64,000 nt of DNA from Escherichia phage slur07. The first letter of the stretch is position 1, and each line of letters starts with the position of its first letter. This document shows positions 16,473-21,660 of the stretch, piece by piece. Location: the sequence record NC_028780.1; one strand, written 5' to 3'. The translations under genes were made by a program, and so were the position numbers. The notes beneath the pieces are model-generated. The model saw only the letters and a program-made list of their open reading frames with translations. It searched no databases and was not told where the DNA came from.

Positions 16473-16788
16473 TATTCGTCCGGTCGATGAGACCGGTCTT
16501 TCAGAAAAAGAACTTTCAATTAAGAAAGAAAAGGATGAAATTGCAAAGCTTCTTGACCGCCAAGAAAATGGATTTATTATTGAAAAAATGGTAGAAGAGT
16601 TTGGAATGAGTTATCTTGAAGCTACAACAGCATTCTTAGAAGAAAATTCTATTCCTGAAACTCAATTTGCTAAATTTATTCCTTCGGGTATAATTGAAAA
16701 AATTCAGTCAGAAGCTATTGACGAAAATCTTTTACGTCCTTCTGTTGTTCGTTGTGAAAAAACTAATACATTAGATTTTCTACTATGA
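16450..16788 (+). CDS. 33: gp33 late-transcription co-activator
   Basis: 112 aa from MTQFSLNDIRPVDETGL, matches T4 gp33; overlaps dsbA 3' end. Confidence 0.9.
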   Translation: MTQFSLNDIRPVDETGLSEKELSIKKEKDEIAKLLDRQENGFIIEKMVEEFGMSYLEATTAFLEENSIPETQFAKFIPSGIIEKIQSEAIDENLLRPSVVRCEKTNTLDFLL

Positions 16789-17438
16789 TTAAACTCCGCA
16801 TGCCTGCTGGTGGTGAAAGATACATTGATGGTAAATCAGTTTATAAATTATACTTAATGATAAAACAACATATGAATGGAAAGTATGATGTAATTAAGTA
16901 TAATTGGTGCATGCGGGTGTCTGATGCCGCTTATCAAAAGCGAAGGGATAAGTATTTTTTCCAGAAGTTATCAGAAAAATATAAATTAAAGGAACTTGCT
17001 TTAATCTTTATAAGCAATCTTGTTGCTAACCAAGATGCTTGGATTGGTGACATCTCTGACGCTGATGCACTTGTGTTTTATCGTGAATATATCGGACGCT
17101 TAAAGCAAATTAAATTTAAGTTTGAAGAAGATATTCGCAACATTTATTATTTTAGTAAAAAAGTTGAAGTTTCTGCTTTTAAAGAAATCTTTGAGTATAA
17201 TCCAAAGGTTCAATCAAGCTATATTTTTAAACTACTTCAATCGAATATAATTTCGTTTGAGACGTTTATCTTGCTTGATTCGTTTTTAAATATAATCGAT
17301 AAACATGATGAACAGACTGATAATTTAGTCTGGAATAATTATTCTATAAAGTTAAAGGCTTATAGAAAAATTTTAAATATTGATTCACAGGAAGCTAAAA
17401 AAGTTTTTATTGAAACTGTGAAATCTTGCAAGTATTAA
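16785..17438 (+). CDS. 59: gp59 helicase-loading protein
   Basis: 217 aa matching T4 gp59 (MIKLRMPAGGERYIDGKSVYKLYLMIKQHM...). Confidence 0.92.
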   Translation: MIKLRMPAGGERYIDGKSVYKLYLMIKQHMNGKYDVIKYNWCMRVSDAAYQKRRDKYFFQKLSEKYKLKELALIFISNLVANQDAWIGDISDADALVFYREYIGRLKQIKFKFEEDIRNIYYFSKKVEVSAFKEIFEYNPKVQSSYIFKLLQSNIISFETFILLDSFLNIIDKHDEQTDNLVWNNYSIKLKAYRKILNIDSQEAKKVFIETVKSCKY

Positions 17439-17469
17439 TTGCTTATTATAAATAGATTATAATTATCTC

Positions 17470-17537
17470 ACTGACCAGCTATGAGGTCATACATCGTCAT
17501 AGCACCAACTGTTAATTAAATTAAAAAGGAAATAAAA
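17470..17537 (+). promoter_or_regulatory. gene 32 translational operator region (leader with A/U-rich gp32-binding tract)
   Basis: Leader ...GTTAATTAAATTAAAAAGGAAATAAAAATG directly upstream of gene 32; in T4 this leader is the autoregulatory operator. Confidence 0.5.
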
Positions 17538-18446
17538 ATGTTTAAACGTAAATCTACTGCTGAACTCGCTGCACAAATGGCTAAACTGGCTGGAAATAAA
17601 GGTGGTTTTTCTTCTGAAGATAAAGGCGAGTGGAAACTGAAACTCGACAATGCGGGTAACGGTCAAGCAGTAATTCGTTTTCTTCCGTCTAAAAATGATG
17701 AACAAGCACCATTCGCAATTCTTGTAAATCACGGTTTCAAGAAAAATGGTAAATGGTATATTGAAAACTGTTCATCTACCCACGGTGATTACGATTCTTG
17801 CCCAGTATGTCAATACATTAGTAAAAATGATCTGTACAACACTGACAATAAAGAGTACAGTCTTGTTAAACGTAAAACTTCTTACTGGGCTAACATTCTT
17901 GTTGTAAAAGACCCAGCTGCTCCAGAAAATGAAGGTAAAGTATTTAAATATCGTTTCGGTAAGAAAATCTGGGATAAAATCAACGCGATGATTGCGGTTG
18001 ATGTTGAAATGGGTGAAACTCCAGTTGATGTAACTTGTCCGTGGGAAGGTGCTAACTTTGTACTGAAAGTTAAACAGGTTTCTGGATTTAGTAACTACGA
18101 CGAATCTAAATTCCTGAATCAATCTGCGATTCCAAACATTGATGATGAATCTTTCCAGAAAGAACTGTTCGAACAAATGGTTGACCTTTCTGAAATGACT
18201 TCTAAAGATAAATTCAAATCGTTTGAAGAACTGAGCACTAAATTTGGTCAAGTTATGGGAACTGCTGTGATGGGCGGTGCTGCTGCAACTGCTGCTAAGA
18301 AAGCTGATAAAGTTGCTGATGATTTGGATGCATTCAATGTTGATGACTTCAATACAAAAACTGAAGATGATTTTATGAGCTCAAGCTCTGGCAGTTCATC
18401 TAGTGCTGATGACACGGACCTGGATGACCTTTTGAATGACCTTTAA
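17538..18446 (+). CDS. 32: gp32 single-stranded DNA-binding protein
   Basis: 302 aa; near-identical to T4 gp32 including zinc-site Cys/His residues and acidic C-terminus [12 protein letters not shown]. Confidence 0.95.
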
Positions 18447-18468: not shown

Positions 18469-18494
18469 GGGGACCTCTAGGGTCCCCTTTTTTA
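18469..18494 (+). terminator. intrinsic terminator after gene 32
   Basis: GGGGACC-TCTAG-GGTCCCC hairpin followed by TTTTTTATTT. Confidence 0.65.
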
Positions 18495-20799: not shown

Positions 20800-21660
20800 A
20801 TGAAACAATACCAAGATTTAATTAAAGACATTTTTGAAAATGGCTATGAAACCGATGACCGAACGGGCACAGGAACAATTGCTTTGTTCGGTACTAAATT
20901 ACGCTGGGATTTAAGTAAAGGTTTTCCTGCAGTAACAACTAAGAAGCTCGCCTGGAATGCATGCATTGCTGAGCTTTTATGGTTTATTTCCGGTTCTACC
21001 AATGTTAATGATTTACGTCTTCGCACTCATGGTAGTCTTATTCAAGGCAAAACTATTTGGGACGATAACTATGAAAACCAGGCTAAAGACCTAGGATATC
21101 ATAGTGGTGAACTTGGTCCTATATACGGTAAACAATGGCGTGATTTCGGTGGTGTGGATCAATTAGTTGAAACTATTGATCGTATTAAAAAATTACCAAC
21201 TGATCGACGTCAAATCGTTTCAGCATGGAATCCAGCTGAAATCAATCAAATGGCATTACCGCCCTGTCATATGTTCTATCAGTTTAATGTGCGTAATGGT
21301 TATCTTGATTTACAATGGTACCAAAGAAGTGTAGATGTTTTCTTGGGATTGCCATTCAACATTGCCTCGTACGCTGCCTTGACGCATATTGTGGCTAAGA
21401 TGTGTAATCTTATCCCAGGAGATTTGATATTTTCTGGTGGTAATACTCACATCTATATGAATCATACTGAGCAATGTAAAGAAATTTTACGTCGTGAGCC
21501 TAAAGAACTATGTGAACTTAAAATTGATTGGCCTATAGAGTTTGGAAATTGTGACACCGAAACACAGCTTTACTGGTTAACTGAATACATGAAACCGAAA
21601 GATTTTATCCTTGAAAATTATGAATCGCATCCAGCAATTAAAGGGAAAATGGCAATATGA
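20800..21660 (+). CDS. td: thymidylate synthase, intron-less
   Basis: 286 aa continuous ORF matching T4 Td exons joined; active-site region PPCHMFYQF present; no group I intron. Confidence 0.93.

Follow-up and report, generated by a model that had tools for sequence, protein, structure and literature searches.

The gene 32 leader of Escherichia phage slur07 is probably a T2-type translational operator

Does the spacer in front of gene 32 in Escherichia phage slur07 hold the autoregulatory operator known from phage T4, and if so, in which form? In T4, this operator combines a 5′ pseudoknot of about 28 nt with a more loosely structured stretch, over 40 nt long, that carries the ribosome-binding site and UUAAA/UAAA repeats; repression requires both parts, and the pseudoknot is the gp32 nucleation site for downstream cooperative binding (PMC535899). 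An initial annotation of the locus had seen an A/U-rich stretch directly before the start codon, likened the leader to the T4 operator and pointed to the pseudoknot that lies upstream in T4. We followed this up in a 64,000-nucleotide stretch of the phage genome (NC_028780.1), referred to here as the window, and comparison with related sequences leads us to assign a probability of about 95% to the leader being the T2-type gene 32 translational operator of a Tequatrovirus. The proposed T4-like autoregulatory operator is borne out by a leader identical to that of T2, a gp32 that is 99% identical to the T4 protein and stems that covary. The match to T4 itself stands for the operator architecture and gives way in the detail, which is T2-type and not T4-type (stem 1, loop 2, number of UUAAA units, no segG). 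As such it is a known feature, the T2 allele of the classic gene 32 operator.

The leader coincides with a 99-nt non-coding spacer, positions 17439-17537 of the window, between gene 59 and gene 32.

16785-17438, plus strand: gene 59 (helicase loader), stop codon at 17436-17438; Pfam T4_Gp59_N (E 1e-53) and T4_Gp59_C (E 1e-51)
17538-18446, plus strand: gene 32 (gp32, 302 aa), both the repressor and the regulated gene; Pfam PF08804 (E 3e-67)
18469-18487, plus strand: intrinsic terminator 3′ of gene 32, GGGGACC-UCU-AGGGUCCCC, followed by a U run to about 18496

The gp32 of the window shares 298 of 302 residues with T4 gp32. Over the leader and the first 100 nt of gene 32, identity to phage T2 (PV958097) is 100%, and 331 phage records reach at least 99%. 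Tequatrovirus genomes, that of Yersinia phage phiD1 among them, match the surrounding 8-kb region at about 97.5% identity. Since the genome around the leader is only about 97% identical to the best database matches, the phage is a different Tequatrovirus isolate from T2. Neither the window nor T2 has segG (32.1), the homing-endonuclease gene that separates genes 59 and 32 in the T4 record.

Some further features of the locus were noted along the way. The 17438/17439 junction in the window is where T4 carries segG, and in the T4 segment (L001, 2855-3542) the segG reading frame extends into the 5′ arm of the pseudoknot. The ORF that starts at 20800 encodes 286 aa; if it is td, it would be uninterrupted here, as opposed to the two-piece td of the T4 record. 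No group I intron was found, and no Rfam family reached its gathering score within the whole 64-kb window (1-64000). Two minus-strand ORFs (17487-17732 and 17516-17650) and a promoter-like site on the same strand (17490-17462) were set aside as mechanical or chance-level.

A pseudoknot-forming sequence lies upstream of the A/U-rich stretch, at 17472-17503, as the comparison with T4 had led the initial annotation to expect. The predicted element is of the H-type and consists of the following parts.

17472-17503, plus strand: whole pseudoknot, starting at -66 relative to the AUG
17472-17476, plus strand: stem 1, 5′ arm, UGACC
17477, plus strand: loop 1, one A, the same in each of the nine leader types
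17478-17484, plus strand: stem 2, 5′ arm, GCUAUGA, also predicted by nested folding
17485-17489, plus strand: stem 1, 3′ arm, GGUCA
17490-17496, plus strand: loop 2, UACAUCG, 7 nt
17497-17503, plus strand: stem 2, 3′ arm, UCAUAGC, also predicted by nested folding

The same finder (a minimum of 4 bp in stem 1 and 6 bp in stem 2, with G-U pairs accepted) places the start of the pseudoknot at -67 in T4 and at -66 in the window, and the published T4 pseudoknot is located 67 nt upstream of the initiation codon (PMC3014915). Evaluated separately, stem 1 has an energy of -6.1 kcal/mol and stem 2 of -7.0 kcal/mol. Prediction of RNA structure, which had been proposed as a check, delivered half of the element: nested folding recovered stem 2, whose arms have a mean unpaired probability of 0.12-0.16, and did not recover stem 1. 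Nested minimum free energy (MFE) folding of 17461-17560 returned stem 2 only, with an unremarkable energy (z = -0.5), so that thermodynamic prediction alone neither supports nor refutes the pseudoknot. The T2 pseudoknot was solved by NMR (PDB 2TPK) and, as outlined in PMC3014915, is made of two coaxially stacked A-form helices. The sequence in the window is identical to that of the T2 leader and would be expected, on this basis, to form the same pseudoknot.

Downstream of the pseudoknot, the remaining leader runs into the start of gene 32.

17504-17512, plus strand: linker ACCAACUGU, which includes ACUGU at 17508-17512
17512-17527, plus strand: UUAA-UUAAA-UUAAAAA, three UUAA(A) units
17526-17530, plus strand: Shine-Dalgarno sequence AAGGA, 8 nt before the AUG, read from the sequence
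17538, plus strand: AUG of gene 32

The A/U-rich stretch is indeed directly 5′ of the gene, since 17512-17537 abuts the ATG at 17538 of the gp32 ORF. These positions are 92% A/U, with three UUAA(A) units plus one UAAA, and both the Shine-Dalgarno sequence and the AUG are inside the A/U tract; a ribosome-binding site is annotated at the position equivalent to AAGGA in phage Ge15. The sequence TTAATTAAATTAAAAAGGAAATAAAAATG occurs a single time in the window, at 17512-17540, and its ATG (17538) is the one that opens the gp32 ORF. In the MFE and centroid structures obtained by nested folding, 17504-17537 is unpaired, and the mean unpaired probability over 17504-17540 is 0.68. A/U richness alone is not distinctive, considering that the window (36% G+C) has 21 separate stretches with at least 24 A/T in 26 positions and that, among 87 ORF starts, the gene 32 ribosome-binding region is not the top one in A/T. 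The same region has six UUAA/UAAA words, the most of the 87 ORF starts. The A/U observation is taken beyond chance by exact homology to the operator mapped by experiment in T4 and T2. In T4, the UUAAA/UAAA repeats are essential for repression (PMC535899). The number of UUAA(A) units is three in T2 and the window, four in T4 and six in HY03 (L085), and Mosigviruses carry one to three extra UAAAUAAUC units (e.g., L087 and L091). With this varying copy number, the start of the pseudoknot moves between -61 and -93 relative to the AUG. Such variability fits a tract serving as a lattice for cooperative protein binding.

Rfam holds no family for the gene 32 operator that could be matched here, either in an E-value search of 17200-17800 or in a gathering-threshold search of the 64-kb window. 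Locally, the DUF2815 RNA motif (RF03084) scores highest, with 19.1 bits and an E-value of 0.69 against a gathering threshold of 41.2. Membership in this family was rejected: the score is below threshold and the match at 17484-17540 is essentially limited to the UUAAAAAGGAAAUAA-AUG ribosome-binding region. The DUF2815 motif sits 5′ of genes that encode phage single-stranded-DNA-binding proteins of another family. Its partial match here might hint at similar A-rich leaders in unrelated phage SSB genes, or it might be a mere resemblance between ribosome-binding sites.

The 5′ part of the spacer contains signals from which the transcripts that carry the operator could originate.

17440-17446, plus strand: TGCTTAT, MotA-box-like, 11 bp 5′ of TATAAT, read from the sequence
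17447-17454, plus strand: TATAAATA, an exact match to the T4-type late promoter consensus
17458-17463, plus strand: TATAAT, perfect -10 hexamer and partner of the MotA-like box, read from the sequence
17461-17465, plus strand: AAUUA, candidate equivalent of the T4 RNase E site (-71), inferred from the sequence

The MotA-box consensus is (a/t)(a/t)(a/t)TGCTT(t/c)A. TGCTTAT and TATAAT may, with low confidence, be a candidate middle promoter that would give a transcript from about 17470, and in phage Lutter an annotated promoter spans the equivalent of 17438-17463. A sigma-70 scan of the window gave counts at chance level and did not report the TATAAT at 17458 because it is without a -35 element. 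As for TATAAATA, the window has 15 copies against 9.1 expected, a mild enrichment that makes one copy alone weak evidence; the late-promoter call is based on the conserved position of the motif and not on counts. In T4 late promoters, +1 is located about 6 nt past TATAAATA, and the late transcript in the window would start at around 17460, roughly 12 nt 5′ of the pseudoknot. TATAAATA is found 4-22 nt 5′ of the pseudoknot in the leaders of Mosigvirus, Winklervirus, L018 and L024. The gap is 4-5 nt in Mosigvirus, Winklervirus and L024 and 17 nt in T2 and the window. With a gap of 4-5 nt, late transcripts would begin at stem 1 or a few nucleotides from it.

Turning to processing, RNase E cuts all gene 32 mRNAs of T4 at -71, and the site is conserved in five T4-related phages (PMC3014915). 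In the T4 sequence, AAUUA is found at -72 to -68, within GAAUUA and 4 nt 5′ of the pseudoknot. By analogy, RNase E would trim the transcripts of the phage studied here just 5′ of the pseudoknot. The late starts and the T4 RNase E end suggest selection for a pseudoknot at the extreme 5′ end of the mRNA. As side observations, a short gap between TATAAATA and the pseudoknot was noted in leaders L015, L020, L021, L024 and L086-L092, and late starts near stem 1 parallel the 5′ end that RNase E makes in T4.

It is reasonable to ask whether the spacer holds any special element at all: it could be an ordinary A/T-rich spacer with a promoter and a ribosome-binding site in which bases pair by chance. 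About 8% of 120-nt window tiles and about 6% of leader shuffles also allow an H-type pseudoknot with 12 bp or more; the finder locates the element and its homologues, but with some 6-8% of controls passing it was discarded as stand-alone evidence. The MFE z-score of -0.5, the 21 comparably A/T-rich stretches in the window and the lack of an Rfam match at threshold also speak for chance. The comparison between genera speaks against it. We gathered leaders from 80 IMG/VR loci and 11 GenBank phages, and counted pairs in nine distinct leader types from several Tevenvirinae genera in which the CCAG...AGG core does not vary, among them the T2 and T4 types of Tequatrovirus, the RB69-like Mosigvirus type, Winklervirus and Jiaodavirus. 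MAFFT applied to raw leader segments (A2) split the columns of stem 1, and the trimmed cores were re-aligned (A3) for the counts. In an 11-pair model of the pseudoknot, all 99 cells of the nine leaders are standard pairs, a full score that is partly built in, as the cores were delimited with a finder demanding perfect pairing. The compensatory changes and the slid controls are not built in by that finder. Six of the 11 pairs show compensatory changes on both sides; one column of stem 2 (8/31) takes the forms C-G, A-U, G-U, G-C and U-A across leaders. None of 500 shuffles matched the observed covariation score or percentage paired, and sliding the 3′ partners by 1-3 columns reduced pairing to 21.7-51.5%, with zero or one double change.

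Chance pairing also leaves unexplained that the CCAG...AGG core and the A of loop 1 are invariant across types while the flanks diverge, and that the sequence is identical to the experimentally characterised T2 element and nearly so to that of T4. We hold this explanation to be extremely improbable, and the covariation between sequences effectively refutes it. The call of a pseudoknot and a putative operator is one of homology and covariation, not of pairing potential or A/U content alone. Two leaders with a different arrangement, L027 and L028 (about -80 to -40), have a homologous and covarying stem 2 (GGUGUAG/CUACAUC) and a relocated stem 1 (AAUGA/UCAUU); their loops are longer, with 5 nt as spacer and 11 nt in loop 2.

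We propose that the leader would act in two parts: a compact pseudoknot of the H-type (17472-17503), with which the mature transcript begins or nearly begins, and an unstructured A/U-rich tract (17504-17537) with UUAA(A) repeats and the Shine-Dalgarno sequence, reaching up to the AUG. The trigger would be free gp32 in excess of the available single-stranded DNA. By analogy with T4, T2 and RB69, gp32 would bind the pseudoknot first (nucleation), polymerise cooperatively in the 3′ direction over the unstructured tract and, once covering the ribosome-binding site, block initiation; the outcome would be a free gp32 pool kept at a set level. Because the RNA is identical to that of T2 and the protein 99% identical to that of T4, the same mechanism can be inferred with high confidence, and binding, nucleation, cooperative spreading and repression by gp32 are all to be expected in this phage.

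A different emphasis is possible, namely that the pseudoknot is mainly an mRNA-stabilising, cap-like 5′ structure that protects against 5′-end-dependent decay, with the A/U tract being just an efficient ribosome-binding site. We find this less probable than not by a clear distance, yet worth serious thought. The gene 32 leader reportedly stabilises heterologous transcripts, a result attributed to Gorski et al. in 1985 that counts for stabilisation. The same can be said of gene 32 mRNA being the most stable T4 message, all species of which RNase E shortens to a 5′ end that is 4 nt away from the pseudoknot (PMC3014915), and of TATAAATA being 4-5 nt 5′ of the pseudoknot in several genera, which would place the 5′ ends of primary late transcripts at the pseudoknot or just before it. 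However, stabilisation and nucleation are not exclusive roles. The pseudoknot is required for specific repression and footprinted by gp32 in T4 and RB69 (PMC535899), and a purely stabilising role leaves the conservation of the UUAA(A) repeats unexplained. We retain the translational operator as the main reading, which none of the observations contradicts; by analogy, the leader may contribute to mRNA stability in this phage as well.

The comparison of leaders brought up a further sequence feature. Apart from A/U words, the word with the strongest enrichment in gene 32 leaders (positions -80 to -1 of the gene in loci L004-L029 and L084-L094) is ACUGU. Of 32 distinct Tevenvirinae leaders, 30 have it, and its 50 copies are 20-fold the background expectation of 2.5. 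Its usual form is AACUGU(U/A)AA, found in the window at 17507-17512, with ACUGU itself at the 5′ edge of the A/U tract. Leaders that bear a pseudoknot usually have one copy, at this same edge (two in L024). Pseudoknot-less leaders usually have 2-4 copies, 10-13 nt apart (one in L019, L023 and L026), and some of these copies fall within the last codons of gene 59, where three different reading frames are used (CAA CTG TTC, AAA ACT GTC and AAC TGT AAA). In L025 and L026 the copies are fully non-coding. Occurrence in three gene 59 frames, or entirely outside coding sequence, points to a signal at the nucleic-acid level. The L027 and L028 leaders are without ACUGU.

Distant environmental gp32 loci (L031-L083, 38-45% amino acid identity) have AUACA/AAUACAA repeats instead. 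AUACA is present in 28 of 31 distinct leaders, 18.6-fold enriched and with copies mostly 9-10 nt apart, in a set that covers about -60 to -1 of predicted gene 32 starts whose start codons were picked by a heuristic. Many of the L031-L083 leaders also share an upstream block, ACAUUAUGAA(A)UAyGUGGAyA. We found no prior description of the ACUGU or the AUACA motif; the literature search with ACUGU and "gene 32" was uninformative and returned unrelated microRNA papers. We can only speculate, and would rather bet against it, that ACUGU is an undescribed sequence-specific determinant of gene 32 control, with lineage-specific repeats as the general gp32 signal and the pseudoknot as an add-on in some lineages. 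If true, short lineage-specific repeats (ACUGU, and AUACA in marine-type relatives) would be what gp32 recognises or nucleates on.

Textbooks use the gene 32 operator to illustrate autogenous translational control, and its pseudoknot may be the only viral one used for translational autoregulation (PMC3014915). Its presence here only confirms a T2-like Tequatrovirus with the standard regulatory set-up and adds nothing new for the locus. The comparative by-products, i.e., the two-stem covariation across genera, the UUAAA copy number, the promoters that abut the pseudoknot and the ACUGU/AUACA repeats, may interest specialists in how gp32 chooses its own mRNA (PMC535899, PMC3014915).

Among known systems, the T2 gene 32 leader is the same element: agreement is base for base across the 99-nt spacer and 100 nt into the gene. 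Stems, loops (a single A in loop 1, 7 nt in loop 2) and the number of UUAA(A) units (three) all coincide, with no difference within the element. The T4 operator, described by McPheeters, Stormo and Gold in 1988 and by Shamoo et al. in 1993 as cited in PMC535899, shares the gene, the two-part architecture, stem 2, the ACCAACUGU linker and the region from the Shine-Dalgarno sequence to the AUG. Alignment with the T4 leader, another check that had been proposed, gave the same operator minus one UUAAA and with T2-type stem 1 and loop 2; the last 61 nt 5′ of the ATG match T4 apart from the missing unit. Stem 1 is UGCC/GGUA in T4 (4 bp with a G-U pair) and UGACC/GGUCA in the window (5 bp), and loop 2 is AAGUG (5 nt) in T4 and UACAUCG (7 nt) in the window. 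T4 also has segG upstream, overlapping the 5′ part of the pseudoknot, with no late promoter adjoining, unlike the window, where segG is missing.

In the Mosigvirus RB69, where autogenous repression of gene 32 was shown by experiment (Borjac-Natour et al. 2004, PMC535899), the pseudoknot is likewise followed by UAAA-type repeats and the ribosome-binding site, with a late promoter just upstream. Its stem 2 differs from that of the window by a compensatory change from U-A to C-G, its operator is longer, with UAAAUAAUC-type repeats in variable number, and gp32 footprints on RB69 RNA differ in part from those on T4 RNA (PMC535899). Outside phages, the E. coli rpsO (S15) mRNA is also autogenously repressed through a translational operator that contains a pseudoknot, a comparison drawn in PMC3014915. 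The sequence of the rpsO pseudoknot is unrelated to the gene 32 operator. The two systems also differ in the way repression works, as S15 traps the ribosome on the mRNA, in contrast to cooperative spreading along an unstructured tract.
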